Assembly: GCA_000004985.1 (NCBI GenBank)
Contig: GG738907.1
Source: Naegleria gruberi
Taxonomy: Eukaryota
Reading direction: 5' to 3' (one strand)
Length of the DNA stretch: 64,000 nucleotides
Below the pieces are notes generated by a model. The model ran no database searches. It saw only the letters and a program-made list of their open reading frames with translations, and was not told the DNA's origin. This document shows positions 3,142-50,830 of this stretch, piece by piece. The position numbers and the translations under genes were made by a program. Position 1 is the first letter of the stretch, and each line of letters opens with the position of its first letter.

Positions 3142-6100
3142 TTAAACAGAAGAAACAGTTACTTTCTTTCGATGTGTCAAAAACCATAATCTCAGTCCAA
3201 ATGCTATACATGCCACAAGTCCCATACCTCCAACTATTGGAATACTAATTAAGGCAAATAAGGCATACATGCTATTATCATTGGATTGTGAACAAATATT
3301 ACTTTTACATCCATCTCCACAATAATTAGCTTGGCACTGATCACAATTTGATCCAGTCCAATAACCATCTGCAGAATTGGCTTTACACTGACATATGTTT
3401 TGTGAAATGCAAAGTCCGTGACCTCCACAAACAGCAGAATTGGTTTTTGGAATTTCAAAACATGTCCAAGAATCTGAATTGCCTGGAGTTTTTGTGGAAT
3501 TTTGTGTTGTTGATTGAGTAGTATTATTTACAAGAGTGTTATTATTACTTGTCGTGGTAGTATTTACATTATTGCCTATAAGTGTATTATTATTTACAAT
3601 TGTGTTATTTGAAGAGTTAGTATTTGTAATATTATTATTTGTTATATTGTTTACAGTAGAATTATTATTCAATGACACAGTCTCATTTGTATTCATTGTT
3701 GTATTATTCGAATTATTGACAGTAGTGTTATTTGTAATAGTATTATTTGTAACGGTAGAATTTGAATTAAGTGTTGAGTTTGAAATAGCGTCATTGCTTA
3801 ATGTTCCATTATTGTTTGGAATTGAATTATTGGTATTGGAATTATTCATCTCTAGAGTGGTAGTATTTACAATAATTGAGCAATCCAATCCCTTCCATCC
3901 AAATTGACAATCACACTTATTTACAGTTGAACAGTTTCCATTTCCGGAACACACTGAACTATCATTGGCAAAAATGTTAAAGCAAGAAGGGATGGAACAA
4001 TCGAATCCAAACCATCCATTAAAGCATTGACAAGAATCAGTTGCTGTGCAATTACCATTTCCAGAACAAACTGAGCTCTCATTGCTTACAATTCCAAAAC
4101 AAGTGGACAATTCACAATTATTTCCATAAAAACCAGGATTACAAATGCAAGTATTTGGTGAATTACAAACTCCTCTTGATGAACAAACTTTTGAAGAATT
4201 TGAAATAATTCCAAAACATTTAGAGAATTCACAAAATTGACCACCGTATAAATCTCCACAATCACAAACATCAGGTGCAAAACAAACACCCAAGCCATTA
4301 CAGACATTTGGATTGTTGGCAAAGGTTCCATTGCATGTACGAAGTGTGGATATTACTCTTAGTCGACTATTGTCAGAGTCAATTACAATTATTTCACCAT
4401 TTCGTCTTAAAATTACTCCAGATGGATTATTGATTTTTGAAGCGGAGGCAGTGGTTCCATCTTCACTGTAACCCAAATCACCAGTTCCTGTAATGGTGGT
4501 GATATTACCATTAGAGAGAACTCTTCTAATTCTATTATTGTACGAATCTGCAATCAAGAGTTCATCACCGTCAATGGCAATTCCTTGTGGATATTTGAGT
4601 TGTGCATTTGTTGCTTCGATTCCATCACCGTTATAACCTAATGTGCCTGTTCCTGCAACAGTTATAATTGTTCCATTAGTAAACATCTTTCTTATTCTAT
4701 TGTTATAAGTATCTATTTGAATTAGTTCATCAATTGAAGATTCTTATTTCACTTACCTGCAATGTACATGTTATTACTTGAATCAAATGCGATAGATTGT
4801 GGATAATTCAGCTTGGTATTGTTCGGTAAGAGATAATCACCATTAAAACCAACAGAGCCTCCAATAACTGTGGAAATATTTCCACTTGGTAATATTAGTC
4901 TAATTCTATGATTATACGTATCTGTAATATAAACAAGATCATTTGAATCAACAGTTACTGAAACTGGGGAATTGAGTTTCGCATTTGTTGCTGGAATTCC
5001 ATCGCCATTGTAGCCACCTAATCCAACTCCAGCTATAGTAAGAATTGTACCATTTGTCAAAATTTTTCTAATTCTATTATTACCAGAATCTGGTAAAGTT
5101 TCAATACAAAAAATAATGGAAGATTACTTACCTGCAATATAAATATTACCAATGGAATCAAATGCAATTCCTGTTGGTTTGTTAACTTGAGCACTTGTTG
5201 CCAAAATTCCATCTCCATTATAACCAAAAGATCCAGTACCTGCAATGGTTGTGATGGTCCCATCCAAGTACGAAATCTTTCTAACTCTGTGATTGCTTGT
5301 ATCTGTGAAAATCATTGAAACCTTAATAAATTTCACACAATCAACTGAAAACTTACCAGCAATGTAAATATTTCCCAATGAATCCAATGCAGCACCTTTA
5401 GGTTTACTCAATGCGCTCAATCTAGAATCAACATTTTCACCACAATATGATGGAGAACCTTGTCCAGCTATTGTGGTAATAAATCCATTTGAAATCTTTC
5501 TAATTCTGTGATTTCCCTTATCAGCAATATATAAATCACTTGTGTTCTTGGCAAAATTCATCAATTCAGGAGAGGCAAGAGTTGCCAAATTGACCGTAGT
5601 ATTATCAGTAAAACCATACAAACTCGTTCCTGCAAATGTTGTAATGGTTCCATTGGTAGACACCTTTCTAATTCTATTAGAATCTGAAAAATAAACTTCG
5701 CCTAATGATGAAACTGCAACTCCATAAGGTGAATTAATTTTAGCTAAGGTTGCCAGGCCTCCATCTCCATAATAATCACCTGTTCCAGTACCGGCTATGG
5801 TTACAATAGTGCCATTCAATAATACTTTACGAATTCTGTTATTATTGGTGTCAGCAATATAAATATTGTCTTTCGTATCAACAGCAACACCAAAGGAAAG
5901 AAACAAAGTTGCACTCGTAGCTTTCATGTTATCTCCATTGTAACCTGTGAAAAAGTAATAAATTAAAAAACAGTTCCGTTAAAATACATACCTTGAGAAT
6001 TGCTTCCTGCCACTGTTATAATTGTTCCATTGTTGAACACTTGGCGAATTCTATTATTGTTCACGTCGGTAAAGAGTAATTCTTCCTTGCTATTTAATGT

Positions 6101-6616
6101 AAGGCCATAAGGATAATTAATAGCTGCATTTCTGGCCAATCCATTATCTCCAGAAAAGGAATCAACTCCAGTTCCGACAATGGTTATAATAGTACCATTG
6201 GTTAATATCTTTCTAATTCTATTGTTGCCATTATCACTGAACAACACCTCTCCCATAGAATTAACAACTACTGATACAGGATTTTTCAATTGAGCTCTAA
6301 TTGCTTCAATTCCATCTCCGTTATATCCTGAAAATCCAGTCCCTGCAATTGTTGTAATGGTGCCATTTGGAAATACTTGACGAATTCTGTGATTATTGCT
6401 ATCTGCAATGAAGAGTGAACCATCTGGACCCAATGCTGATGATGCAGGATTTGCCAAAGAAGCCTTAATTGCCAAGCCACCATCACAAACACCTCCACCT
6501 GCAATTGTTGTGATTCTTCTCAATGATGTAGTATTCTGTGCTTGAATTGTTGCAAGAGCGCTTGAAAGTAATAGGAAGACGCTGAGCCAGTAGAATGGAT
6601 TTTGAGTATTGTACAT
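3142..6616 (-). CDS. type-I membrane protein with a signal peptide, about 15 NHL repeats, an N/S/T-rich stalk, tenascin-type EGF repeats, a TM helix and a short tail. Five exons.
   Basis: The ATG at 6616..6614 encodes MYNTQNPFYWLSVFLLLSSALATIQA, a signal peptide. I inferred exons at 6616..5992, 5944..5357, 5302..5132, 5089..4757 and 4712..3142, each +/-1 nt. Introns are 40-54 nt of GTAAGT/GTATGT...AG type. Each junction restores the NHL consensus, for example IYIA-G|AT-DTYNNRIRK. NHL units repeat as NxIYIAD..NhRIRKv..nGtItTiAG. The EGF repeats read CxxxGxCxxxxxCxCxxGWxGxxCx. The TM helix is LFALISIPIVGGMGLVACIAFGLRLWFL. Confidence 0.75.
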
Positions 6617-7013
6617 GGTTTTGATGTCAACTGGGTTTTTTTCTTTTTGTTTTCCTGTTGCATATATGATTAATAAATGTTCTAGAGATGCAATGAAGTG
6701 TAAGAGCTCAAATTCTAGCTGCATCCAACCAAATTAAGCCCTTAATCATTTGATCTCTATTGGAATGATATATTTGGATTTCCATGGAGATCCTTGGGTT
6801 GTTGAGGAAGAGTTCAACACACAACTCGTCGAACAACATAAGAATCCAAAATTCCTTAGATATCCTACACTACACTCGATCTTATTAGAATTAATAAATA
6901 AATCTGTTGAGTTTCCACATGAGTTTCTCTAATTGTCAACAAATGTCATTGAATTACACAATCATTGCTAGACACATTCATATGATTTATTCAATTCCAA
7001 AACAACTTTGAAA

Positions 7014-13538: not shown

Positions 13539-16500
13539 TTATGTAAAATAATATTTATTTAATGGTAAAAAGCGATGTTTAAGCCTCTTCTTCCTTGAGG
13601 TTTGCGTAATTAATATTGTTGTAATTTTCCTTCTTTTCATCACCACTGCCCGAAGAGCCTTCTTCTTTCTTCTGTAAATAACAAAGGCTACCACTCCTAC
13701 AACAAGAATAACAATTACCACTATTAATAAGATTAATCCCAATCCAATGAGGTAGTAATAGTTGTGATTTTCTCCAATAATAACACTGTTAGAGTCTTTT
13801 GGAAGGCCTTGCTGACTTGATTCATGAGTTGGAGGAGGATTTGGTGCAATCATTTGGGATATGATGGCAACGGAAGATGTCCATGATTTTGAGGAGCAGG
13901 ATACTGAGAAGATGGTTGCTTCTCCTTGTTCTATTTGATTAAGGATGGTTGTAGTTACATTATCAGTGTTCCAGCTGTTAGAATCATAGAATGCACATGA
14001 AAGACTTGTTGCTGCCTCTTTCTGAACTGAAATGTTGTGCATGTATAAGTGGATAGGCTCTTTGAGATTTGTTATTTCAATTCTTTCTGTTGTTCCATTT
14101 TGCAATAGAATGAAATTAACTATTGGACTAACTACTTTGGAATTCTCTTGTGATTTTGATGATTCAGGAATTACAGAGGAAGCCATTGTTAGAATCGTTT
14201 GTCCTAAAGTATTATTCAAAAATACATATTCTGAAATAGTGGAAGGTAGGACCATGATGATATTTTCATACTTTTCGAAGGTGATTGTGAGATGATTGTT
14301 AATATTTTGCACTTCCACAATGTTTGTTTCTGTTTCATTTGATTTCGATTCAATATTTGAACAATAGAAAGAATCTTTCTCAGATTCTGGACACAACACA
14401 TTTTGATCACATTCAGCTCCAAAATATCCATACTTGCATTGACACTTGTCTAATGAAGAGCAGAATCCATTACCAGAACAAACACGTTCATCAGAGAATG
14501 CAATACCAAAACAGTTGAATAACTCACAAGAATCACCAAAGTAGCCACCAGAACATTCACACTTATTTGGAGATACGCAATTCCCTCTGGACGAGCAAAC
14601 TGTCTTGTTGGACATTAGAATATCAAAACATTTGAAAAGTTCACATTCATCTCCTTCATAACCCTCTAAACATTCACATTCATTATATCCAATACAATTA
14701 CCTTTTCCAGAACAAACATTATTAGCAGAAGGTATCTTTCCATAGCAAATTGTATTATCGAGGGTCAATTGAAGCATTGGATTTGGCTCTCCAGCTTTAC
14801 CAGAAATAGCAATAGAAAGTTCCACATAGCTCGATGAAAATTCTGTTATTGGAATAATTAGTGATCTGTCATGGTCTCCATTCGAAGAGTAGCTGCTGTA
14901 GTCTGGGGAGTAAATTTGTTTAGCAACACCGACATTCACATAACCTGAAACAGCCTTAATATTCAAAACGAGATAGTCAGAATATGGCCGTCCGTAATAA
15001 TTGAGGATGTTGGGCATTCCATCAGTAGATGCCTTCATCAATATAGTATCTCGTAAACGGATGAAGGCGTCATCTAAGAAGGCAGATAATTTGAATGTGG
15101 AAGCAACTAGCCCGTAAACTCCAATGTAATAGCATCCAACTTGTTGATTGCTTAACATGAGAACTTGACCGTATTGAGTTTCAGGATCCACTTTCCAATT
15201 ATAATGAGTTTCATTCGCAGGTTGGCAGTCATTAGAAACATACATGATTGTGGAGCCGGTAATATTGATCAACGCAAAGGAAAGATGTGAAGCAATGTTT
15301 TTTTTGAGATCGAATCTGAATTGATGAATCTCATTGTTAGCGACACTATCTTCCCCAGAAATTCTATTCAAAGGTAATACTCTGTAAATAATTTTCACTT
15401 TCAACTTATACGAAACAGGAGTTGAAGAACTCGTCTTGACAGCAATGTAAAGGTAACTTCCTGAAAAGAGGATTTCCTGGTTGTAAATACCATTAATTTC
15501 TTGTGGTGCACCATCTTGCCCTATTGGTTTAGGATTTTCGGTACTGTAATAAAGGTTAATGACACCAACACTTTCAATTGAAATGAGCAATTTCATTGAA
15601 CCATCCAATGGATATTGGTAAAATTGATAGAAATCCGTATTTACAATTTTAGAGGAAACAATCTGGTCATTTGATAAGAGAATTGACTTGTTTGATTGTA
15701 AAGCCATTATTGAGTAGTATGAAAGTGCTGAAAGTTCTGAATAAGTTCCTTCCACTGTAACACGAAACTCATTTGAAGTTATGAGTTTAGAGATTCCTGG
15801 AATTAGCAATGCATTTGGTGACCGTGTACTCCAATTATAATCTCTTGGAGAAGGAAAGGTATTCTTGGTATTGACATACAACTCAACGCTTCCAACTGAT
15901 GTTGAAATGAAGAACATTATATCAGTATTGTTAAGTTCCTCTTGCTTGGCTTTGAAAGTGAAGTATCCATATTTTCCATAAGGTACAACAAACAATCCAA
16001 CTCTTCTTCCATTGATCAATTCTGTTGGAGGATTTTCTGTTGAATATGTCAACGTATAAGAAGAGTCAACTTCACCAAAAACAGAAAATTTGAGATCACT
16101 TCTCTCGTTAATAATCAGTTGTCCAGGTTGACCTACTGTTCCATTAGCTGCCCTAGTGTGAACATATTGATTTGGTCTTTCACTTTCAAAGGAAAGGAAC
16201 AATTTCACACTTCCAAAAAATACAGTCAATGTAAGGCTACTTTTTAGCATATCTTTCTTGTTATGTTGGTAGTAATTCAATTGATTTGCAGCAACTGTTC
16301 CATTCACAGCAACATCCTCTTGTAAAAGCACGTATTCTGGCATTGATTTTACGGTCAAAGTTACCAATCCAATCTTGATTCCAATGTAATAAGTGCCAAC
16401 CTTTGAATCACTCATAGGAATTTGCTTTACTTTTTCTCTATTTGCCAACATGTAATAATCATAACTGTTCTCAGTTGGTTTGGTTCCATACTTGATATAA

Positions 16501-17447
16501 AAGTCTACCATCTTGGTTGTTCTCACAATAACTTCAAACCTTAAATTTTGTAATATCAAGTTATTGTAAACAAAATAGTGCAAATCTGAAGTTGGTGAAT
16601 CCTCCCTGAATGCAATACTAAGACTCTCAGATATCATTGTTGAAGTATTTGCTTGACATGAAACTATTGTAAACTTGTTGTCAACAAAATATCCATACAC
16701 TCCAATCCAGTACTCTCTTGGAGAATTTTCCTCCACTGGAATGGTAACAGAATCAGGTCCATAACTACGTGATGCATAATCATAATCTGTACTGGTTGGA
16801 AATTGAGATATTCCTGAAACATATAGATCAGAATCTCCCTCTTGAGTACCAATAGAAATATAGAGCTTTGTTGGTAGTTGACCAGTGACTTTAACTTTAA
16901 AATAGGAATAACCATTTCTCTCTACCTGACTGTATTGTGGTTGACCATCAACTAGAGTAACATGTGCTGTTTAGGTTCGTTTCCAATAGTAAAAATTTCC
17001 CATGTTTTACAACTTACCTGGACTAGTACTTCCCCACAAGTTGAAAGTAAACCTAGCAGGAGTATTACCATACACACCAATTGTGAAAATATTTCCATTA
17101 CTTGGCCATGTTCCATTCGCAGTGACAAGTAAACTTGGATACGAAAGCAAACACTTTTCACACTGTAAAGTTGGTTGACCATACGTGCTAACATACATGT
17201 AGACTTCACCACTCAACGGAGTCAATGCAAATGTAGCAACAGCACTAGAAAAAAGACTTGGATCTACATAGTAATAATGCCATCCTCCTTCTTCTACCAT
17301 ACCATTTATAGGAATACCAATTTGTTGAATGATTTCTGCTTGATTTTGAGTGGACAGTAAAATATTTAATAATAAAATGATGGTTATCAACAAGAGGGAA
17401 ACAGGAAACAGCTGTGTACGGACCACCACTGGTGGTGTGGAAACCAT
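13539..17447 (-). CDS. large type-I membrane protein of about 1285 aa with a signal peptide, a big extracellular region, three tenascin-type EGF repeats, a TM helix and a short basic tail. Two exons.
   Basis: Exon 1 is 17447..17018 (signal-peptide-like MVSTPPVVVRTQLFPVSLLLITIILLLNILL). A 52-nt intron runs 17017..16966, GTAAGT...CAG. Exon 2 is 16965..13539, in frame with the supplied ORF 13539..16736. The EGF repeats read CYGKIPSANNVCSGKGNCIGYNECECLEGYEGDECE and two more. The TM helix is YYLIGLGLILLIVVIVILVVGVVAFVIY followed by RRKKK. Confidence 0.7.
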
Positions 17448-22703: not shown

Positions 22704-23060
22704 TTACAAATTTTCTTTTTGATAAATTTCAACTTGCTTGATCATATTGAAAAGCAAATCTTCAACTTGCATGGCAGATTTTTCAATTCCATTTACAAAT
22801 TGACTATATAAGGTAAAATTAGTTTCCTTTCCACACATGCCAAGTTTCTGAACGAGTGGCATTCTGTCGAATTCTTCTATTTGTTTCCTTCTTTCTGAAT
22901 ATTTCTCAATTCTTTCATTTTCTGAATAGATAAAAAAGTATAAATACCATTCTAGGTAAAGATCCAATTTTCTACTTGACAATTCGTCAACAGATTGGTG
23001 ACCAGTATGGGAAATGAACATTCTCTCGAGGGGAATCCAATAATTTTCATAAATTTGCAA
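22704..23060 (-). other. downstream ORF that overlaps the DUF262 CDS end by 14 nt in another frame. It is either a frameshifted C-terminal continuation (pseudogene or assembly indel) or spurious.
   Basis: It starts at TTG, not ATG. No GT..AG intron can join the two frames. I see no recognisable DUF1524/HNH motif. Confidence 0.3.
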
Positions 23061-23874
23061 TTTGCTTAGTTTCGTCCAGTTTGGAAAGTAAGTGATTCTT
23101 GATTAGGTCTGAATAGGATAAGTCAATTCCAGGAGTTTTGATGTAAAAGAGAATTTGATTGGATTTTCCAACATCGTACCGTTCTCCAAAACATTCTTGT
23201 GCATTAATTTCAGATTCTTCATATTCAATAATCACAAATTTACCATTTATGGTAAGAATTGGAATAAGGCTTGATTTTACAATGGCCAAACTATTAACTT
23301 GTTGTTTTACAAGTTGTGATTTGAAGATTTTGTAAAATATTTGTCTGGTATTGTGCATATTAGAGTTTTGAAGAAGATTAGTTTGATCACCTTTGAATCC
23401 AATAAGAATTTCGATATTCGAAACTCTGTCGTCATGACTTGGGATTAATCGAGAAACATTCTTTGCAATTTCACTTGCCTTTGCATATTTATCTTCACTT
23501 GACAAGTATTCCTCTTGCAATTTCTTCAAATCAACTGACTTGACAAAGATATACGAATGAATTTCGTCTAAAATCTTTTCACTATCTACCAATTCCAAAG
23601 CAGCATCTCTCAAAGCACAAATCCCAATCAACAAGGTAGTCAATCTCTGTTGACCATCAATACAAACTCTACTTGCCAACTTCTTTTGAAAAAACAACTT
23701 TCCAATATGATGACCGAATGAAGTTCCATTGAAAACCAAATCATTGTACAATTGCTTGACAATCTTACTATTCCAGCAATATTTTCTTTGATAGATTGGA
23801 ATCTGAATCTGTGAACTCTTACCAAATGAAGGATCTTTAAATAGAGAGCTAAGTGTATGTGGTTCGATTTTCAT
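23047..23874 (-). CDS. DUF262 (ParB/Srx-like nuclease superfamily, GmrSD N-terminal type) domain protein. It appears intronless.
   Basis: The hallmark DUF262 motifs are present: IQIPIYQRKYCW (the IP.YQR.Y.W motif) and CIDGQQRLTTLLIG (the DGQQR motif). It is a continuous 275-aa ORF with no GTAAGT-type intron, unlike most neighbouring genes. Confidence 0.65.
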   Translation of the reverse strand: MKIEPHTLSSLFKDPSFGKSSQIQIPIYQRKYCWNSKIVKQLYNDLVFNGTSFGHHIGKLFFQKKLASRVCIDGQQRLTTLLIGICALRDAALELVDSEKILDEIHSYIFVKSVDLKKLQEEYLSSEDKYAKASEIAKNVSRLIPSHDDRVSNIEILIGFKGDQTNLLQNSNMHNTRQIFYKIFKSQLVKQQVNSLAIVKSSLIPILTINGKFVIIEYEESEINAQECFGERYDVGKSNQILFYIKTPGIDLSYSDLIKNHLLSKLDETKQIANL

Positions 23875-24046: not shown

Positions 24047-26497
24047 TTACATGATTGTGCATTTCCTTTTTCGTGAGGGATTTTGAAGTTTGCTTTTTCT
24101 TCTCTTCAATTCTTGTGATAGGGTGGCATCGTCCTTGGCCAATGCCTGATCAATGATTGGTAATGTTTTCACATACGTCTTGACTCGGGCTCTATACATC
24201 ATGGCTGAAATTTTCTCAAAGGAGCTTTGAATATTCTCCAGAGTGTCTGTATTAACAATGACCACATCCTTAATAAAGTACGAGTAGGTTTTCTGAACCT
24301 CCCATAAATCATTCAAGGAAATCTCGTGTAAGGTGGTATTTTTCGTGATTGTTCCCAGAATGATGGCTGCTGGAGGATCCATGGTTGTTCTTTGCTCATC
24401 CTTCTTTCTAAACTCGATACACTTTTCAATGTACTTGATCATGGCATCGAGGGAACTTCTGCTCGACATGTAGGCAACGAATATGACTCCATCAGTGCCT
24501 CTGAACTTGTATTCTGCACTATTTGGAGCGAGGGAATAGTCCATAAAACTGCACGATTCTACCTTTACTTTGAATTCTTCCTTGTTAAATTTTATACTCT
24601 TACATTCAAAGTCAGTTTTGCCTGGTAAGGTGAATTTCATGTAAATAATTCATGAATAAATATTTGAAAACTTACTCTCGAAAAATAGAGATCTAATTGT
24701 TTGCACAACAAGAAAGTTGACACCAGCAACCAACAAGTAAAAGTAATTGGATGGATCGTAAACTACATTCTTCTTTTTAGGAATGACAACCTTTTGTTGC
24801 AGAGATTGAGTATTCACATACGAGTAGAGTCTCTTGTAGGAAATGTTCAATGACTTTTTACATTCGAGATCCCTCATGTACTCTTCCAGCTTGTCAATGG
24901 TTGGAAAATTAGGATAGACATATTGCCACAGTATCATGTATTTCCAAAAACCTTCCACAATACTATTCTTGAATTGATCTTCATTTTCAGGATCAAATTC
25001 AAGAGCCGAGTGAAAACTTTTAGAAATGAGCATTAAATTAAAATAATCACGAGTAAGCTCTGCTGGGAATGGTGTATATTTCGGATAGTGGCCTATTCTT
25101 CTCATGGTTGAGCTGGAATTTCTTCTCGATATGGTAGAATTACTCGAATCTATAGGTGTTATTGAACTAGGAGAAAAGGAACCAATCATGTTAGTACCTG
25201 TTGGTGAAAAGGAAAAGTCAGCAAACAAGCTTGACGTATGGGTTGTTGTACATAGTATAAAACTGGCAATGTGTAAAATAATTTCTTGTGGACAGTCAGA
25301 AAGATTCGAATAATTCCTAATTTTTTGTCGTTTAGGTTTTTGACTAGAAAGCTGTGACAGTGTACTACTCAACCTCCTGATGAATTTTAAATTTGATGAA
25401 GGATTATTAGTCGGTGATGAAAGTACTTCATCTTGCTCCGTGAGACAAATTATTGTTGTTGGGTCAATCAGGCATGTGGCATTTGCCGTCATTTTTTCAC
25501 CATTATTTTCAAGTGTTTGGTTATTTTTATCTCCTTCCTGATCAATCTGGGAACGATTTTCCCTTCCCAAAACCTTGTCATTAATCAAACAGTTTTCTGC
25601 TGGGTTGCCTTCTTCTGTATGTCTTTCGTTTGAGGAAGAATGAAAGCTCAGTTCTTCTCTACTACTGCAACTAGTATTAGTTGTTGGTGATTCGACAAAT
25701 GGTACGACATTTGATTCATTACTGCAACAACTAATATTTGATAAGCTGTGATTCGTATTGTGGACTCCTGAAACAGATGAGGAAAATGACTTGAATGAGG
25801 ATAAAGTATTAGTGGTTGAATGTTTCTTCTTGTTAGGTGTTATTAGAGAGCCATCTACTGTTAGAAATTGAGTGTTAGAAGGACTCTTATTTAGTGGTGG
25901 AGAATGGTAATGTTTCTTTGCCATCTTGGATTCTTTAGATTTACGTAAGAGTCTTGTGAGAATGTTATTTCCCTTAATGGTCAAACTTTGACCATTAGTT
26001 AGTAGTGAAGGTTGAGTAGTATTTGATGTTATTGAGATGGTTGGAATGGCAGTGTTAGTGAGGGCAATAGAAGGAGGACATGCTTGATTATTCTTATTAT
26101 TCGAAACGAGGGTCTCTGAGCGAGAGAATGAATCTCTAGATTTCTGAGAAACTTTAGGTAATGGATTCGAGCTGGATCTTCCTCTTGTCTTACTTTCATC
26201 TGGAGCAAAACTTGGACTAGCCATTGAATCTGTCTCATGAATAGAACATCTCTTCAAATTTGCTGATTGACTAGCCAATAAATCATTCCTCTCCTGAATA
26301 CCAACATCATGCTTTGAAACTTGATTTAAATTTCTACTAAATATTGAAAGAGAGCTAACGACACCATTAATACTATTTGATGAAATATCCAATCTTGAAA
26401 AGGATAAATTTGAGCCTTGATTTCTCTTACGACGTTGTTTCGTATAAGATGGAGCCAATTGAGCAGTTGAAAGTAGTACTACTTGATGAGAGGGCAT
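24047..26497 (-). CDS. F-box protein of about 800 aa with a C-terminal Ras-like domain that has no P-loop, ending in a polybasic stretch and a CaaX box. Two exons.
   Basis: Exon 1 is 26497..24676 and exon 2 is 24621..24047. The 54-nt intron runs 24675..24622, GTAAGT...CAG. It joins the supplied ORFs 24650..26497 and 24047..24640 in frame, and the track's M at 24640 lies inside the intron. The F-box-like motif is LSDCPQEIILHIASFIL. The C-terminal domain has a Ras-fold-like pattern (YLLVAG, TDGVIFVAY, ILGTITK) but no GxxxxGK[ST]. The tail reads KRRKSKLQNPSRKRKCTIM, polybasic plus CaaX. Confidence 0.6.
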
Positions 26498-34523: not shown

Positions 34524-35729
34524 TTACAGGTTGGATCTTCTCTTGTTGTGCTCTCTCAAGCAAAACTCAATGGTTTCCCTTCCAATATTAATTTCTCCGC
34601 AATGAGCTTGTTCAAATCCTTCACAACCTGGCGATGAATTAATTTCACAAATTTTGTAAACATTTTCATGATCGAGTAAAATGTCAACTCCTGAAATATC
34701 CAAATGACATTCCTTTGTGGTCAACCGTGCCAATCTTTCTAGCTCTTCATTCATTGGAAATTTTTCACACAAAGCTCCTTGATGAAAATTTGCTTTGAAA
34801 TTTCCATTCGTTGATTTTCTCATCATTGAGCCAACTACCATATCTCCCATTACAATAATTCGTAAATCCTTTCCACTCGAATTGGAAATAAACTCTTGCA
34901 ATATCCAATTATTTGAGGTTGAAATTATTTCATTTAAATCTTGAAGTTGATTTCTGTCCTTAATTAGAATAATTCCCTTTCCTTGACTTCCATTCGTCTT
35001 TTTCAAAACCTTTGGATAGCCACCTAGTTTCTGCTCAATCCATTCGAATCTAGTGAGTGGAAATGTTGCAGCAATTGTTTTTGGAATGGAAATTCTCTTT
35101 CGTGCTAGAGTTTGCATTGTAACAAGTTTATCCTTTGAAATTTCCATTCCTTTTGAAGAATTCAAAACCAAACACTGTTCGAAACTTTCCAAAAATCGTA
35201 AAAGAGCCATTTCACAATACGTAATTTTAGCTCCACATCTATTAATGATGACATTTGGCAATTCCACTATTTTCCCATCATATTCCACTTGATTTTGCAA
35301 CAAGTCAGTTTCTGAATCAGCACACACTGAAAACAATCCAGTTACCTTACTCGAAACCAACACACCAGCTCTCCATCCTTCCTCAATAATCCTTCGTCGA
35401 GTATAATTCAATTCCTGATTGGTTGAAATAATCCAAACTCTCAATTTTGCTTTTTTATATCCAAAACCTTTAATCATTTGCAAGCCGTGCTCTTCCGAGT
35501 TGTACAATGTATCATCCTGTGCATTCAAATAAATAATCATCTTGGAATGGGATGAAGAGGATGAAGAGGAAATATATTTTGGTTTTAATTGAAATGATAA
35601 AGCATATTCAGGAATTGTAATTTCTCTTGAGGATGACAATTCCGATGCAGATGATGATGATGATGAGGTGTAGATCTCTTTCGTCATTGGTTCTGCCTTA
35701 ATTGTTACTAATTTTCCATTGGTTAGCAA
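34524..35729 (-). CDS. RimK-type ATP-grasp ligase (RIMKL/alpha-L-glutamate-ligase-like)
   Basis: The ATP-grasp motifs are NRCGAKITYCE, GGYPKVLKKTNGSQGKGIILIKD, DLRIIVMGDMVVGSMMRK..NFKANFHQG and the catalytic loop LDISGVDILLD...YKICEINSSPG. Confidence 0.7.
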   Translation of the reverse strand: MLTNGKLVTIKAEPMTKEIYTSSSSSSASELSSSREITIPEYALSFQLKPKYISSSSSSSHSKMIIYLNAQDDTLYNSEEHGLQMIKGFGYKKAKLRVWIISTNQELNYTRRRIIEEGWRAGVLVSSKVTGLFSVCADSETDLLQNQVEYDGKIVELPNVIINRCGAKITYCEMALLRFLESFEQCLVLNSSKGMEISKDKLVTMQTLARKRISIPKTIAATFPLTRFEWIEQKLGGYPKVLKKTNGSQGKGIILIKDRNQLQDLNEIISTSNNWILQEFISNSSGKDLRIIVMGDMVVGSMMRKSTNGNFKANFHQGALCEKFPMNEELERLARLTTKECHLDISGVDILLDHENVYKICEINSSPGCEGFEQAHCGEINIGRETIEFCLREHNKRRSNL

Positions 35730-36469: not shown

Positions 36470-37000
36470 AAGTTCGGAGATGGATTGCATTTGTTATTGG
36501 TGCTGCCATGATGATTGCTGCTGGAACACAGTATGCATTTTCATCGATTAGTCCTAATTAGTCCTTCTTTGAAAAAGTAAGTTGTGTGAGAAAGATCAAA
36601 TATTTAGTAATAATTATTTTAATTATTAATCATTGGAATATTAAAATAGACGATTTGATTTGACTCAAACTGAGGTGAATACTATTGGAACAGCAGCAAA
36701 TTTGGGAACTAATTTCAGTTTTCTCTTTTCTTTGGTGAATGATGTTCTTGGAGCTCGTTCTTGTAGTTTTGTTTCTGGTGCCTTCTTGTTTGGATCTTAT
36801 TTTCTGATGGCATTGACAGTTTCTGGAGCTATTCCAGGAGCAGAGAATTATATTGCACTTTCTGCATTCATGTTTATTATGGGTAACAGTAGTGGTGGAG
36901 CTTAGACAAAGAACCTACTGCCACTCATACCACCTTGTCCGAACATTGGTTTGTGTTGCCAGCACTGTGGCATTCTGATATGGCTAAGGGATATCTACAT
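36470..37000 (+). pseudogene. truncated and disabled fragment of an MFS transporter (nodulin-like/OFA-like N-terminal region)
   Basis: The N-terminal MFS/nodulin-like segment reads RRWIAFVIGAAMMIAAGTQYAFSSISPN followed by a TAG stop. After an intron-like AT-rich gap, ...FDLTQTEVNTIGTAANLGTNFSFLFSLVNDVLGARSCSFVSGAFLFGSYFLMALTVSG..GNSSGGA runs into another stop. Only about 140 of an expected 500 or more residues are present. An in-frame stop precedes a local duplication (attagtcctaattagtcct). It runs into the 3' end of the convergent gene at 37092. Confidence 0.4.
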
Positions 37001-37091
37001 ATTCAGAGGACCTTATCTTGAATAAGATGGTAATCCTTCATTGAACTTATTATTGATAATAATGTAATTTAATTTCTATTTTTTAGTGTAA

Positions 37092-38304
37092 TTAGAGTTG
37101 GAAGATTAAGAGGATAGAGAAAACGAGTACCATGATCCATGAGCTTCCCTTAGCAAGGAATGGTTGAGCATTACTGGTGGCAGTAACATTGAGATTAGTG
37201 AATGTGGCTAAACCATATGCAGTATCCCAAGCCTTGACGGTACACCCACACGTACCGTTCATCTGTCTATTTGCCCAATCAAAGTAGGCAATAGCATCAC
37301 CTACAATGGCGTGAACAGCATTATTCTTGACATCAGTATATTGCAAGTTGACAGCTGCATACTTGACATAGGTGGCAGCTGTCAATTCAGTCTTGATGAA
37401 AGTGGCATAATTAGTTCCATCATATGCTGTTATATTTTAAATGAATGGATTGTTATAATTATTATAATATTTCACATGAAAAGATGATGATTGGAATATT
37501 TCACATGAAAAAATTGATTATAATTTTGCCAATTAATAATTTAAAACAACTTGATATACTTACCACCAACTTTGATACCAGTTTGATTCAATTGGTAGAT
37601 ATCATTAAAGACCTTGTTTGGTTCCAATCCAGTTCTGATCCATCCCTTTGAAGCTCCTCCAAAAGAACATTGAAAGTGAACATCCTTAACTCTATTGTCG
37701 ACATCAGGACGAGTATTAGCAGTGACCATGTCGCCTGTAAAATATTCAAATATTATAAATTTGAATAAATTTACATAAAATTTCAATTAAATGTCAATTT
37801 TGATTTTCAAACTTACATTGATTAGTTGAAACAGCAAGTTTCAAAGTTTCAAAGAAACCCAAAGCAGTAGTGTTGAATCTGATAATATTAGTTTGATAAT
37901 TGCTTCCATAGTGTTCATTGATCTTTCTGACAACAGATTGAGCCAAATAGGTCTTGGTTGATAACCATGGTTCAATAGTACCAGTTTCCCTATTAAATGT
38001 AAAATTTTAACAAGATATTGATTCAAATCAATTGAAATACATACCAACACATGTTTAAAGCAGTTCTTCCAACGAATGGATCCTTTGCAGGCCATTTAAC
38101 AGTACCTGCACATGTTGGAACGTTGAAATACATATTCTTCGAATAGTAGGCAATCCATGCAGTGTCAGTTGTCAAATCTTGAACAGCAGCATCCAAAGCA
38201 TCAGAAACAGCTTGAGTGATGGATGCTTGGCAGTGGACTTGAGTAGCAAACAAGATGGCAGTTGTTGCAATTAAGAGAATGAGGATAGAAGAAGTACTTT
38301 TCAT
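37092..38304 (-). CDS. secreted GPI-anchored protein, hypothetical. Four exons.
   Basis: The exons are 38304..38045, 37989..37817, 37734..37564 and 37426..37092, with consistent phases. Introns are 55, 82 and 137 nt. There is a signal peptide (MKSTSSILILLIATTAILFATQVHC). The C-terminus ...SNAQPFLAKGSS plus the hydrophobic tail WIMVLVFSILLIFQL is a typical GPI attachment signal. Confidence 0.6.
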
Positions 38305-39460
38305 TGTAGTTTTTTTTTTGAGTTGGGGAGAGTAATGAGGACAACAGCAAGTGTCAATAAACAACTTCAGTGCATAATACCATTTAAATGACCGTTTGTT
38401 TAAATGTCAGTTGATGTTTGACGTTCGCGTCTGTATTTCAATCCTTTTCTATATCATTTTCACATTTAGACAATCGGCACACCATATCCATGTCCTTTAA
38501 TCTTTCCATATTGGTCTTATGCCTCAACTGTTTCAGTACACACTAGATAAAACACACCATTTAGTGTCAATACCTTATTGCTTAGAGGAGGAATGCAAGA
38601 ATTCATGAAGGTGAGGAATGACCCAACCCGTGCATTCCTCAATCACTGTACTGGATGATGGAGAGATGAATGGAAATGAAATAGGAAGTCGTAAACAATG
38701 ATGATGATTAGCAAGGCTTTGGATCTGTGTTTTATCTCTCTAAAATATCATTTCGAGTCGATTTATGTTGTCTCTCTTGTATGATAGTTGGTATTGATAA
38801 ATAGAAGTTGGTATTGAAGCTTGGTGTCGATAGGTAAAGAGAGGTAAGTGGATCGTGGTGATATTGGATGATGGAGAGGAGTTGGAGGAATTTAAAATTC
38901 ATGCAGAATATTTGCCGAAAATGTAAATCTATATTAACAATTTAATCATGAATATTAAATATGCAGAGGCGAGATTGTGTGATCATCGAGGAGAAGTGAT
39001 TGTATCGTGATCGAAATAAATAAATAATAAAATTGAATTTTTAATTAAATATTAAAATTATATTGATTATGAAATATCAAATTATGAAACAGATCAAACC
39101 CTTTGAAATTATCTTTTCTGCATTCCTTCCGCTCAGTTCAGATATTGTGATGGTAAGAAGCTTAATTTAATAAAAATTTAAAAAAGTCACCAAAGCGCGT
39201 TAAAAATGTTGGTTCATACAACATGTTTAAAAAGTATATAATATCATGTGAGGGTTAGTGATCAGGGCATCTACGGTTCATATCAAACTTGTGCAGAACT
39301 TGCAAATATTTCCTTCCATTGCCATTACATTTCCGAGATGTCTTCCATCATTTGGAAATTAGGTGAATACGCAATGCTAATTATCCTTTCGTCATCACAT
39401 CATAAATTGAAATTAAATCCACTTGTAATATTGGTAATCAAATAACCAACACCAAAAACA

Positions 39461-42400
39461 ATGCCACCAAAATATGTCATTCAACAGCAAAAATTGAAAC
39501 AACAGGCAGTGTCTAATCAATCACCACAAGCAAATTCTAATGGTTTATTTGTTCAACTGGGTGTGTTACCACAAACCAATCCACAACCACAACCAACTTT
39601 AGTTGATTTACCTCCTCTTGTTGTTCCCACCAACAGTATCATTACTCCGTCCACACCAAATGATCAATCATCTACACCACTGTCAGCTGTTTCAACATCA
39701 TCCATAAGTTTGCAAGCATCATCAACACCAACTAGTTCATCACCTCCTGCAGCCAAACCAGCAACAAAGAACGAAACTAAAAAACCAAAAGAGAAAGACA
39801 AGAAAGAAAAGGACAAGAAGGAAAAAAAAGAAACGAAGGATAAGAAAGAAAAGAAAGAAAAGAAGGAAAAGAAAGAAAAAAAGGAGAAGGAAGAGAAGGA
39901 CAAGAAGAGAAAAAAGGTTCCAGAAAAGTCTTCTGAAAAAAGTAAAAAGAAGAAATCCGATGCTTCTACTCCAACAATCAACACAACATCAATTACCAGT
40001 AGTAGTGCAACTCCAACAGTACCATCTCCACAAAAGGTTGTAAAAGATGTTGAAATGACAGATGTCTTAACAAAGGAAGAAGTGATCAAAGCAGTGTTTG
40101 AAAATATTCCAAAACAAGTTATTGTTAAAATATCATGCTTGGATTCTAATGAGTTCCAAATTGATGAAGATATTGTATTAAGTGAAGAGGGAATTCCAAT
40201 TGTTAACGGTATCAAATTGTTTCAATCAATTGATTGGAACAATTCATTAGAAGATCATGAATCTTTCTTTAATTTCAACTGCTCACTTGTTCTTTCAACT
40301 ATTGCCAGCGAAAGTTCAATAACAGTTCAAGAGTTTATTTATTCTATTGATGAGGCACTCAAATTGAATCAACAGTATTGTAAGGATTTGATGCGTTCTA
40401 TGAATATTTCACACGAAAACTATTCCTTTGTGTACGATTTGCAAACCAACTCAATGAGCTTGATTTTCAAGAGAGAAACAGAAATAGTGGAACTTGCTGA
40501 AATGCTCTACGAAATCAAGACTATTAGAGAACTGAAGGAGGCTGAAGAAATGGAAGCCGAGGAGCAAATTATTACAGAGGGACCAATAGATGAAATTCAA
40601 GTCAATTTTGAGTTTAATTTTGAAAAGGAGGAGAAAAAGTATGTATTGGAGCTTCGTGCACCAAAGGCAAAATCGTACAAAACCATTGTCTCATCCCATC
40701 TCCAAATTGCTGAAAGTGATATTTTGAATTATGGTGAAATAGCTAGCGAAACACTGGTTGAAGCTAATGGTGTATTACCAACAAAACTGAAGGACGTTCT
40801 AGCTAGCAGAGTTGATGTAAAGGTAGTGCATCGTCATGTCTATTATGAGCAGAGAGTAATTTCATATGAAATATTCGAAAGAATGAAGGATATTATTGGA
40901 CAGACTGAGTTTTCATTATATAATCATCTCTGCTTTCTAGTTTGTACGCCTGATCAGAATACCTTATGGCATCAGACAATGGAAAGATTGGAAAGATCCA
41001 ACATTCTGCCACCAAATACCAAACTTTCACATGTCTCAATCAAGTATAGAAAAGATCACGTCCAGATGTTCGAAAAATTCAGAGACAGAATTGCAAATGA
41101 AAAAGAAACTCTCTTCATTATAATTGTAGACGAGTGTCACTATGCAATTACCAAAGAAGGTGCTCACGACAAGATTGTTAATGATGAGCTCGCTCTTCAA
41201 CACAATAACTTTTTCATTCTATTGGTGAGCGCAACCCCTTACAATGTCCTCTCAGTTGATAGTAATATTCCAGAAGTGTACAAACTCTTGAACAAACATG
41301 AAGATTTGGAAGTTGGTACAAAAATTCAAGTCACTTCCACGAATTATAACAAGATAGGATTTGGTGTATTGATCAAATATGAGGAGCAATATTCTACTCC
41401 TGTGTATGAGCTAATTGAATCCAAGGATCAAAATATATTTTTGGAGGATGTAGAAGAAATAACTGGTAAGATTATACCACTCATGAGTGATGAATCTGAA
41501 GAGAAAAACTTTGAAATTGGAGAAGTTGTGGAATATGAAGAAGTTCCTGACACAAATCCTCAACCAACTTCTAAGAAATCAATCTCAACAGTCAGGTACA
41601 TAGTCAAATCCCTAACAAGAAACTTGGAAATGGAAGTAAACCTCTCAGATAGAGATTTACGAAAGATTAATACTTCAAAAACTAGAAGAATTACAAATCA
41701 AGCAATTGGCAATATTCCAAAGGGAAAACTTGTTGAAATACATGATATAATCAAGTGGAGTGTAACTTTCAAACCAGTGAATAATGATCCAGCAGTATCC
41801 AAAGAATACACCCTCAATGATTGGCAATTCAAACACCTTACCAATTACGAGGAGTACAATGTTGTGAGTTGGAGTGAAGTACAAAAGCGTACAACCTTGG
41901 AAAGAACAGAGCAAGATAATCAAACGAAGAAATACTTCAGCAAACAGGATTACATTAATTCTCTCAAGCAAGAAGAACCACTTGTTTTCAAAGATTTAGA
42001 ATTTGAAAGAGTTCTGAAAAAGATCAAGGTTGCATCCAATACTTTAAGACCAATCATGTTAGCTATTGACTATCACTTTTGGATTATTACTGAAGGATTG
42101 AGAAGAAAACTATATGATGAAGTTACTGCTTACAGACATTTTAATTCCATTGATGCTGCTCTTGATATTGAACCAAAGCACAAAATATACGTAGAGATTT
42201 GTAAATTAATTTATCTAGCTTACTTGTGTGCTAAACATTTGAAGATGGATGATGTTTTGGAGAATCAAGAATTTGATGACGAGGACGATGACTATGATAT
42301 CCTTGATGAAACTAAAAAGACCGTAAAGAAAAAGAAGGAAGATTTGGAAAAGAAAATTCAACATTTACTGGAATATTTGAAAAATAAGTTCAAGCCAAAG

Positions 42401-45291
42401 AATCCTGAAAGATTATTTTCAGTTTTAATCGATCAAGAATCCCACACCAAAACTCTCATTAATACCTTGATAGAATCTGGTAAAATTCCAAATGATAACA
42501 GTGTGACGTTGAGAGGGAAAATGAAAATATTGAGAATTACAACTACAGATTTTGCCAACACTGTTTTCAAGCTATTGAGAAGTTCCATTTCCAAAGTAGC
42601 AGCAAGTGGCTACATTTCACCAGATATTCTCATAGACACTGGTGAAAATCCACTCACTCTCGATCAATTATCTTTCATCTCAAGAATGAAACTTGCTGAA
42701 AAAGTTCTGTCCACAGAAGATTATGAAGTTTTCCAAAGAAAACCAAGTAGACTTTCTAAGGAGAAAAAATCTTTGGAATACATTAATTTACACAATTTCC
42801 CTTGCATTCTAATCCTAGTTGCCAAAGGTCGTCAGGGAGATACCTTCCCTAATTCATTTGATTGCTTGGATATGAGAGCCAAAGGTGATTCCTTGCCAAA
42901 TTACTCATCTTTTACACAAGAATTTGGTCGTTTGTGTAGATATGTGGACGATTCTGACAAGAAACCTATTGCACTTGTAACAGATTCAATTTATAAGGAT
43001 TTATCCAAGTGCGGTGAAGGTGGAGCTACAATAGTAGGTAACACGAGCATGAAGCTTGATACCTACATGACCAAGATGAAAGGAAAGGAAGGTCAAAAGT
43101 ATTGGTCCATTGTTACATTCTGTAGAAGAACCATGACTGCAGTTGATGGAAAAAAGCTTAAAGGTGAAAAGAAAAGTCCTCCTTCCTATGATTCAATGAG
43201 ATCAGGTTCTGATAAGGATATCTCCTCAAAGAAAAATCACAAGAATCGTATGTTACTATTCGCCGAACCACAAGTAAGTATATTTATAGTATTTGTGAAT
43301 ATTAATAACAATGAAATCAGATTGGTAAAACAGACGCCTTTATTCACTGTTTGGAAAGAGTAATTCATGACATTGAGAAAAATAGAAGTGAGCGTATGGT
43401 TGATATTAATGAAGAAGAACAACCATACGATGATAATTCTATTGGTGTTGATGCTGTTATTTCTAACTATTCTGAATTGGAACGTGTATTACCTTACTTT
43501 GAAAATTTACAAGGTCAACAAAGGGGTGAATACAGCTCAATTTCTGCTGGAAAGTATGCCAAGCTTGTTTTGAAAACCAGAGAGGAAATATTCACTGAAT
43601 TTACACCTGATAAGATCAGGTCTGTACACAAATTATCAAGAATTGAATCTTTCATGACAAGTTCCAATCATTATTGGAGCAAGTTTATGGAAAAATTGAG
43701 TAGCCACAACTTTGATTTGGAAACATTCCAGACATTTGATGGAAGATACAATGATATTTTACATCCTTCATCTGGATATAGAACGCTGAAGTTTGGAGAA
43801 TCAAGTTCTACATCATCCTCGAAAGAAATTATTGAGAAAGTTGACTTATCCGAAAAGATGAATATTGGTCTTGCAGATATGAATTATAAGGATAAATTAA
43901 TTACCATCCAATTGCAAAAGGTATTTGGATTGAAGATGGCCATGCTAGAGTCTTGCTTTCCAGGAGAAAAGCCATTAATTTCCATTCCATCAAGCAAAAT
44001 GAATTGGTTTGTAATTTCATCAGATCAACAACATGTCACCAGATTCCTACTGCCTGATGATCCTAATGGTGTTAGAAGTTGGATATTTGTCCCTTCTTGG
44101 AATAGAAGTGCCTCAGGTTTATTCTATCTGAAAAGTATGAAGGTTCCATATAGACAAGTAATTGTTGTAAGACATTCCGAATTCAAGTGCTATAGAAATG
44201 TTTTGGGAGGAGATTTTGTGATTATGAGCTTACCAGATATTGTGAATATGAAAGATCTTTTCAAACTATTCCCAATCCCAACAACTGAACAAAGAAAGTT
44301 ACAGTACAATGAAATAGTGGATGGAAAAACTCTTATTGATTATGAAATGAAGGACGATGTTGGAGGAATTGGCTACTCTAGAATGGTCATTCAAATTCTT
44401 TCCTATGCATTTGGTTTGGAATTTATTTGGATGATGGATGATAATTGCCATCACTTTGAGAAGGTTGAAAATGGTAGAAAGGTTCCTTGCTCATTGGCAG
44501 AAGTTTTAATTCCACTCGAGAAAATTGTCTATGATGAAAACAAACCAATTTCAACTATTACTCAGTCAATTCAACCAATATTTAAAAATAGACAAAATCC
44601 ATCTCTGAATATCACTCTTAATGATAGTATAAGCAGTTTTACTCCTGGAAAGGATAAAATTGCCATGATTGGAGTTAGAAAGGATGGATACAGATATTCT
44701 TCATCGATCAACTACAAACCATTTGTAAACAGTTTCACCATTTGTTCTCTCTTCCTTTTGAATACAAAAAGAACAATTGATTCTGGTTGTATATTCCCAT
44801 CAAGAAGATATTTAGAAGACATTGAATTTGAATATTTATGTTTGGAAAGAGGCTTATATTGTGTGAAATCACAAAACTATTTCCTTCATAAACCTGCGAA
44901 TCCGTTGAGAATAGATTATGTTTTACCAGTTCCAACCATGTATGAAATTGAAGAGGAAATTTTTAATACCATTTCAAACTCAATTTCCACCTCTCAAGCC
45001 AACGAACCTTCAAATGAATTCTTAGCAATCAAAGATTTGATCAAGAATTCAAATCCTCAAGCAATCATATTTGATGATTCTAGGAGTTTCATCATGCAAG
45101 CATCTTCAATCTTTTTGACAGCTCCCACTTTTGAAATGTTCACCTTTTTTCAAACAAACGACATTAGAGAAAATCTCAGATCCATCTTGAGCTTCCTTCC
45201 TTTTGCCAAATCGCAAACCTCTGTGTTTTATTATTCCCCAAGTTCTGATGAATCATCAACCAAAGAATTGATACTAAAGTTTGTGAAATAG
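39461..45291 (+). CDS. very large protein of about 1930 aa: a K/E-rich N-terminal repeat region, a central SF2-helicase/ResIII-like core with motifs II to VI but no recognisable Walker A, and a long C-terminal region. Two exons.
   Basis: Exon 1 is 39461..43273, with a GTAAGT donor at 43274. The 47-nt intron ends in TCAG at 43320. Exon 2 is 43321..45291, in frame with the supplied ORF 43351..45291, whose M is a TTG. Motif II is LFIIIVDECHYAI (DECH). Motif III is FILLVSATPYN (SAT). Motifs V and VI are ILILVAKGRQGDTFPN and TQEFGRLCRY (QxxGRxxR). The region upstream of DECH (..HLCFLVCTPDQNTLW..) has no GxGK[ST]. The 39790..39910 stretch is a (GAA/AAG) repeat encoding KEKKEK. Confidence 0.6.
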
Positions 45292-50757: not shown

Positions 50758-50830
50758 GCCCGTCTAGCTCAGTCGGTAGAGCGCAAGGCTCTTAACCTTG
50801 TGGTCGTGGGTTCGACCCCCACGGTGGGCG
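50758..50830 (+). tRNA. tRNA-Lys(CTT): tRNA-Lys (anticodon CTT)
   Basis: GCCCGTCTAGCTCAGTCGGTAGAGCGCAAGGCTCTTAACCTTGTGGTCGTGGGTTCGACCCCCACGGTGGGCG is 73 nt. The acceptor stem has 7 bp (two G-U pairs). The D-arm is TAGCTCAGTCGGTAGAGC. The anticodon stem CAAGG/CCTTG closes the loop CTCTTAA, giving anticodon CTT. The T-arm is GGGTTCGACCCCC. It closely matches eukaryotic cytosolic tRNA-Lys. Confidence 0.9.

Follow-up and report, generated by a model that had tools for sequence, protein, structure and literature searches.

In a 64,000-nt stretch of the Naegleria gruberi contig GG738907.1 (GenBank assembly GCA_000004985.1), hereafter the window, we studied a locus at 39461..45291 on the plus strand. 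The best explanation of the whole, which we hold to be highly probable, is a single two-exon gene for a GREB1-like protein in which a circularly permuted superfamily 2 (cpSF2) helicase is fused to a TET-associated glycosyltransferase (TAGT), probably as an active motor-coupled sugar transferase. An initial annotation of this DNA, made from the letters and a list of open reading frames (ORFs), had proposed one spliced gene of about 1930 aa for an SF2 helicase-like protein "without a recognisable Walker A". The gene model held, with a product of 1927 aa and orthologues that are collinear across the junction. The statement about the Walker A was overturned: splicing assembles AEPQIGKT at aa 1268-1275, and all 30 aligned relatives have the same Q, G, K and T in it. 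The window itself is AT-rich (about 34% GC) and eukaryotic in character.

Both ORFs named in the initial annotation exist as claimed. The first, 39461..43363 on the plus strand, encodes 1300 aa in the ORF listing, and the second, 43351..45291 on the same strand, encodes 646 aa from a listed TTG start that lies inside a conserved helix, alpha-1. The 47-nt intron that had been proposed between them, with matching phase on both sides, was likewise recovered, in phase 0 and with an open product. The gene is laid out as follows:

39461..43273, plus strand: exon 1, 3813 nt or 1271 codons (aa 1-1271), with a low-complexity, lineage-specific N-terminus and then the cpSF2 module up to ..LLFAEPQ

43274..43320, plus strand: intron of 47 nt, GTAAGT...CAG (GT-AG), in phase 0 between Q1271 and I1272, sequence GTAAGTATATTTATAGTATTTGTGAATATTAATAACAATGAAATCAG

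43321..45291, plus strand: exon 2, aa 1272-1927 plus the stop, with IGKT, helix alpha-1, a linker, the TAGT glycosyltransferase and a C-terminal tail

Because exon 1 amounts to exactly 1271 codons, the join falls in phase 0; the frame is kept across it, and the 1927-aa product has one terminal stop. Only the acceptor ending at 43320 leaves the frame open. The sole other AG in the intron, at 43288-43289, was tried as an acceptor and rejected, since it reads TAT TTG TGA, with a stop two codons on. Homologous genes support the chosen junction. The Willaertia magna protein (P0002) runs contiguously through the position of the junction as HRNRILLFAEPQIGKTDSFLHFLERL, and at the Naegleria lovaniensis locus (L001) the P-loop is also split, by an intron at 14150-14216 that reads caa att g/gtaggt...tatttag/gt aaa act. 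This intron lies 4 nt downstream of the one in the window gene and is in phase 1, splitting the Gly codon behind its first base.

Two side observations concern the N. lovaniensis locus. The 4-nt difference in position between the two P-loop introns could reflect intron sliding or an independent gain at nearly the same site. The deposited protein model C9374_001944 (PYSW02000014.1, L001 ~13990-14130) reads ...KYWIWSHIAEEQCKLWMERRLVLFAEPQ, and another frame of the same DNA gives CRRTMQAVDGKKVKGDKAVPPSYD...QKQCHQNRLVLFAEPQI, a reading collinear with that of the window protein. The public model therefore seems to follow a wrong frame, or to be over-spliced, shortly before the P-loop.

The raw ORFs appear to be without a Walker A because the 47-nt intron cuts through the codons of the P-loop; left unspliced, the ORF reads AEPQVSIF...WKE at this site and then stops. 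In the spliced product, exon 1 ends ...RMLLFAEPQ and exon 2 starts IGKTDAFIHCLERV..., which joins nt 43262-43273 to nt 43321-43332 as AEPQ/IGKT, a match to the pattern [AG]x4GKT. The context across the junction is RMLLFAEPQIGKTDAFIHCLERV, with a layout of strand, P-loop and helix, and the Walker A stands 107 residues downstream of motif VI. The helicase motifs are:

40928..40978, plus strand: motif Ia-like segment LCFLVCTPDQNTLWHQT, aa 490-506, within lobe 1

41129..41140, plus strand: motif II (Walker B), DECH, aa 557-560, in which D and H do not vary among 30 relatives and E is nearly invariant

41228..41236, plus strand: motif III, SAT, aa 590-592, with SATP invariant in the relatives

42827..42853, plus strand: motif V, GRQGDTFPN, aa 1123-1131, in RecA-like lobe 2

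42917..42943, plus strand: motif VI, QEFGRLCRY, aa 1153-1161, in RecA-like lobe 2

43247..43401, plus strand, interrupted by the intron: permuted motif I unit, aa 1263-1298, made up of the strand MLLFA, the P-loop AEPQIGKT and the helix DAFIHCLERVIHDIEKN...

The DECH, SAT, GRQGDTFPN and QEFGRLCRY motifs that had been read from the ORFs were thus all located, and the conservation of the DECH box, raised as a question at the time, is borne out across the relatives. The remark that no GxGK[ST] occurs in the 300 residues upstream of DECH is also correct; a pattern scan of the translated protein found no [AG]x4GK[ST] anywhere upstream of that motif. In linear order, the protein carries DECH at 557, SAT at 590, motif V at 1123, motif VI at 1153 and AEPQIGKT at 1268, that is, Ia-II-III-[insert]-V-VI-I. 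Circular permutation of the helicase core puts the canonical P-loop on the C-terminal side of motif VI, and such a permutation, with the Walker A after motif VI, is the defining trait of the GREB1-type cpSF2 family. In structural terms, the strand, P-loop and helix that form motif I at the N-terminal end of RecA lobe 1 would have been relocated to a place C-terminal of RecA lobe 2. Since 5.3% of shuffles of the window protein carry the Walker A pattern by chance, a single match is indecisive alone, and conservation decides.

The family assignment was clear from Pfam, where the spliced protein matched PF20692, "circularly permuted SF2 helicase found in GREB1 proteins", at E=7.9e-159 (531 bits against a cut-off of 26.2). 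The match falls into three stretches, the best of them at aa 459-1194, and at E<=1 the full-length Pfam scan returned PF20692 and PF20691 only. In a collection of 5.8 billion proteins, the closest were N. lovaniensis C9374_001944 (52% identity over 59% of the query) and W. magna ABK040_005548 (39% identity over 100% of the query), both of which carry PF20692 and PF20691. A phmmer search with aa 440-1330 against 1.84 billion representatives gave 444 relatives at E<1e-3, 183 of them at E<1e-10. Two further homologue searches were less productive: one with a full-length alignment was flooded by low-complexity KEK words and returned 2 proteins only, and one with an alignment of conserved blocks returned 16 short fragments, with no named animal GREB1 among them.

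Across the relatives, the permuted order was the rule. Every full-length relative has DExH, SATP, motif V and QExGRxxRY, followed 70-340 residues on by R.LL.AE[PC]QIGKTG. Downstream of motif VI (within 450 aa), QxGK[ST] was present for 67/67 of the motif-VI occurrences in the retrieved relatives that had enough downstream sequence, and the 300 residues that precede DExH contained a Walker A in 0/46 relatives. Besides the Walker A residues, the invariant positions in the 30-sequence alignment of conserved blocks were the D and H of DECH, SATP, the G and T of motif V, and the Q, G, R and R of motif VI. The ATPase residues are all present in the window protein (GKT, the DE of DECH, SAT, and the Q, R and R of motif VI), and they are invariant or nearly so among its relatives. 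As in SF2 helicases, there are two RecA-like lobes, which carry motifs II, III, V and VI. Fusion of cpSF2 to TAGT is the norm in the family.

Two variants of the module were seen among the relatives. A compact subfamily of metagenomic proteins (P0028, P0040, P0048, P0075, P0076, P0085, P0096, P0106, P0124, P0125, P0131, P0134) has about 300 aa between DExH and motif VI, without the large insert, and carries the signatures DEAH, EQDxGRxxRY and G[RLK]PQIGKTG; it may be the ancestral, insert-free form. Tandem arrangements of two complete modules, each in the order II-III-V-VI-Walker A, were found in P0007 (Hondaea fermentalgiana GBG30820.1, 4793 aa) and P0008 (2887 aa).

The predicted structure was examined with an AlphaFold (AF2) model of aa 440-1330 built from a 46-sequence alignment, which reached a predicted local distance difference test score (pLDDT) of 83.9 and a predicted template modelling score (pTM) of 0.84; a 7-sequence alignment gave a pLDDT of 45.7 and was unusable. 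The model divides the helicase module as follows:

40829..41260, plus strand: RecA-like lobe 1 without its own beta-1, P-loop and alpha-1, aa 457-600, from the best PF20692 stretch (starting at aa 459), the AF2 strands and a weak ResIII match

41276..42475, plus strand: inter-lobe insert, aa ~606-1005 (~400 aa), a beta-rich module followed by a helical bundle in the AF2 secondary structure (model residues 167-566)

42521..43015, plus strand: RecA-like lobe 2, alpha/beta, aa ~1021-1185, with motifs V and VI

The lobe-1 strands in the model are at aa 489-496 (LCFLVCTP), 550-557 (LFIIIVDE) and 584-590 (FFILLVS). The permuted unit contributes a sheet strand at aa 1263-1267 (model 824-828), the P-loop and a helix at aa 1274-1298 (model 835-859), with a pLDDT of 92-96 over the block. 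The inter-lobe insert is much shorter in the compact family members.

Profile comparisons located the start of lobe 1 relative to known helicases. In one relative (P0065), lobe 1 matched ResIII at E=2e-6 (28.2 bits, above the cut-off) from profile position 43 onward, and DEAD at E=1.6e-5 (25.1 bits against a cut-off of 26) from profile position 35 onward. The motif-I part of both profiles is left unmatched at the N-terminus of P0065, and the segment equivalent to LVCTPDQNT aligns with them from these positions on. The initial annotation had placed LVCTPDQNT where motif I would be; it is the strand-plus-helix of motif Ia, just after motif I. For lobe 1 of the window protein itself, ResIII scored 20.6 bits against a cut-off of 22.5 (E=4.4e-4, motifs II-III only) and DEAD 14.9 against 26. 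A search of the Protein Data Bank (PDB) with the single sequence gave no match. Foldseek against the PDB and viral models returned nothing at E<1e-3, with weak SF2 helicases at the top.

The C-terminal part of the protein had been described as a 650-aa region of unknown function, which no longer applies, as it contains a TAGT domain. Its features, together with those of the N-terminus, are:

44077..44892, plus strand: TET-associated glycosyltransferase (TAGT), aa ~1524-1795, from PF20691, PHROG 842 and conserved residues

44437..44442, plus strand: DD motif, aa 1644-1645

44893..45288, plus strand: lineage-specific C-terminal tail, aa 1796-1927, with no Pfam match and no column conserved at 60% or more past aa 1795

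39788..39916, plus strand: low-complexity stretch rich in KEK/KKRKK, aa 110-152

Pfam assigned aa 1526-1655 to PF20691, "TET-associated glycosyltransferase" (E=4.5e-9, 37 bits against a cut-off of 27.5), and aa 1526-1697 matched PHROG 842, a beta-glucosyl-HMC-alpha-glucosyltransferase, at E=6.9e-11; a PDB sequence search with the glycosyltransferase region gave no match. With 48 relatives aligned over the region that follows the Walker A, the window protein keeps the conserved F1527, P1529, Y1562, P1576, G1622, R1625 (100%), Q1629, D1644-D1645 (98%), N1646, G1722, N1752 (96%), E1770-D1771, K1787 and K1795. All of the family-conserved positions are retained, and therefore the domain at aa ~1524-1795 looks catalytically competent, judged from its sequence. 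At the other end, the first 440 aa are of low complexity and can be aligned to heterolobosean homologues only. The KEKKEK-repeat N-terminus noticed earlier corresponds to the KEK-rich stretch at aa 110-152, for which a role in nuclear localisation is possible.

We propose that the helicase module is not a dead scaffold but, most probably, an active ATPase or translocase that depends on nucleic acid, and that the protein as a whole most likely couples this motor to sugar transfer. By binding to DNA or chromatin and moving along it or remodelling it, the cpSF2 module would bring the glycosyltransferase to its acceptor, to which a sugar would be transferred from a nucleotide-sugar. The acceptor may be 5-hydroxymethylpyrimidines generated in DNA by TET enzymes, or Ser/Thr of a protein, as reported for human GREB1. 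We would place a protein acceptor slightly before a DNA acceptor, with the remaining probability assigned to neither.

Several points weigh against an active motor of this kind or against its direction to DNA. The one GREB1 substrate established by experiment is a protein, estrogen receptor alpha (ER-alpha), not DNA. The helicase module of human GREB1 has been described as catalytically inactive (PMC7968844; also a 2018 review). Pfam scans of 28 other ORFs of at least 150 aa in the window found no TET/JBP domain. The packing of K1274 beside D557/E558 in the model is something we infer from the strand assignment and the high pLDDT, and the splice 43273/43321 draws its support from homology. When aa 1258-1300 were placed before lobe 1 in a de-permuted construct, DEAD improved from E=0.023 to 0.0049 with motif I not covered, and ResIII stayed around 1e-4. 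PDB profile searches gave nothing significant with the blocks in native order (top match Cas3, E=0.082) and no helicase match with the blocks in de-permuted order.

Of the alternatives, the one that survives best is a protein O-glycosyltransferase like human GREB1, of the O-linked N-acetylglucosamine (O-GlcNAc) type, in which cpSF2 is a binding scaffold only and no DNA base is glycosylated. We regard it as a serious contender, at somewhat less than even chances. Human GREB1 O-GlcNAcylates ER-alpha in a manner that depends on its glycosyltransferase, and a general protein-modifying role has been proposed from how widely the clade is distributed (Shin et al. 2021, PMC7968844); the lack of a linked TET/JBP gene among the 28 ORFs scanned in the 64-kb window fits as well. 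A mere scaffold, however, is at odds with ATPase motifs that are intact and invariant across the protist relatives, which speak for a motor that works. Among characterised enzymes, those nearest to the glycosyltransferase domain act on hydroxymethylated DNA bases, and Naegleria has active TET enzymes: references cited in PMC8256090 describe biochemically characterised TET enzymes of N. gruberi that make 5-hydroxymethylcytosine (5hmC).

The more specific, DNA-directed form of our proposal is that the protein, in contrast to human GREB1 with its reportedly dead helicase, is a working ATP-driven DNA translocase carrying a glycosyltransferase over the genome, that it glycosylates TET-made 5hmC or 5-hydroxymethyluracil (5hmU), and that Naegleria DNA holds an unreported base resembling base J or glucosyl-hmC. 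We consider this tentative and, on balance, unlikely. If it were true, the protist GREB1-like proteins would represent the ancestral, DNA-directed form of a family whose animal members are known only as protein O-glycosyltransferases.

The initial annotation itself had favoured a degenerate pseudo-helicase or ResIII-like ATPase, its Walker A lost or hidden as a non-canonical P-loop near LVCTPDQNT. Such a protein would fit the absence of [AG]x4GK[ST] from the 300 residues before DECH and the description of the human GREB1 helicase as catalytically inactive. It is nonetheless very improbable, and is refuted by the condition that the annotation had set for itself: a canonical GKT appears on re-translation, at the very splice junction it had proposed. 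Moreover, AEPQIGKT is invariant in relatives, the Walker A is family-wide downstream of motif VI and never upstream of DExH in the proteins counted above, and LVCTPDQNT corresponds to the motif Ia strand. Hardly credible, finally, is a pair of separate genes with the intron retained, giving a helicase-like protein that ends at ...WKE and a glycosyltransferase translated apart: both ORFs are open as listed, but the unspliced product loses the invariant GKT, ORF 2 starts at a TTG inside conserved helix alpha-1, the Willaertia and N. lovaniensis proteins carry both domains and are collinear across the junction, the N. lovaniensis intron falls in the same P-loop, and cpSF2-TAGT fusion is the family norm.

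Elsewhere in the window, a minus-strand ORF at 23047..23874 (275 aa), about 15.6 kb upstream of the GREB1-like gene, matched PF03235 GmrSD_N (DUF262) at E=2.3e-21. GmrSD_N, a ParB-like domain, forms the N-terminus of type IV restriction enzymes, which cleave DNA containing glucosylated hydroxymethylcytosine. The minus-strand ORFs beside it, 24047..24640 and 24650..26497, had no Pfam match. A thematic link between the GmrSD_N ORF and modified DNA bases is possible, and the proximity may also be a coincidence. Directly upstream of the gene is a 3.7-kb ORF-poor gap in which short minus-strand ORFs (36600-38400) resemble the exons of a gene for a secreted or GPI-type protein; one of them (38023..38364) has a signal-peptide-like start, MKSTSSILILLIATTAILFATQVHC, and another (37092..37385) a hydrophobic C-terminal tail. 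The other content noted (3142-6724, 13539-16736 and 34524-35729 on the minus strand, 50758-50830 on the plus strand) includes teneurin-like NHL/EGF repeat proteins, a RimK-type ATP-grasp ligase (E=1.4e-41), RasGEF, RCC1/Kelch and thioesterase ORFs, and a single tRNA-Lys(CTT).

The combination of cpSF2 with a TET-associated glycosyltransferase is already known: Pfam has curated it, it has been published, and the literature explicitly mentions heterolobosean members, so the architecture carries little weight as a discovery. The locus is of more use as a cautionary case: with an intron in the P-loop and a circular permutation combined, a linear reading of the ORFs makes an intact ATPase resemble a pseudo-enzyme. 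The strict conservation of the ATPase motifs in the window protein and in the retrieved protist and metagenomic relatives also sits uneasily with the "catalytically inactive" label of human GREB1. Naegleria, with its characterised TET enzymes, is a reasonable organism in which to ask whether GREB1-like proteins glycosylate DNA.

Compared with canonical SF2 enzymes (DEAH/RHA, RIG-I-like, SNF2, HsdR/ResIII and Cas3), the window protein has motif I after motif VI and not at the N-terminus, a roughly 400-aa insert between the lobes, and ResIII and DEAD scores below the curated cut-offs. Its glycosyltransferase domain is homologous to the phage TAGT (PHROG 842) and to the kinetoplastid base-J glucosyltransferase JGT, with acidic DD/ED motifs in common. 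These known enzymes stand alone, whereas the window domain is fused to a helicase, and the phage genes adjoin TET/JBP and methyltransferase genes (PMC8256090); a phage-like TET/JBP gene neighbourhood was considered for the 64-kb window and rejected, as none was found among the ORFs scanned.

The resemblance to animal GREB1 and GREB1L lies in domain order and size, with cpSF2 followed by a C-terminal TET-associated or Fringe-like glycosyltransferase and a length of about 1900-1950 aa in both. GREB1 is presented by Shin et al. 2021 (PMC7968844), citing Iyer et al. 2013, as a circularly permuted SF2 helicase joined to a glycosyltransferase related to DNA-base glycosyltransferases, and Naegleria-like Heterolobosea are listed among the carriers of GREB1-like proteins (Shin et al. 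2021, PMC7968844). The N-terminal Zn-binding domain of animal GREB1 (Shin et al. 2021, PMC7968844) has no match in the window protein (Pfam, E<=1). The ATPase motifs of the window protein are intact (GKT, DE(C)H, SAT, QxxGRxxR), in contrast to the human module, whose inactive status is a description from the literature, and ER-alpha, the human GREB1 substrate, does not exist in the lineage of the window gene. Because the animal N-terminal domain is missing and every ATPase residue is intact, we call the protein GREB1-like and not a GREB1 orthologue in the narrow sense. With N. lovaniensis C9374_001944 and Willaertia ABK040_005548 the likeness is at the level of orthologues: they share the same domains, the same motif order and the P-loop AEPQIGKTD, and the W. 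magna protein differs by an extra Cys-rich N-terminal segment.

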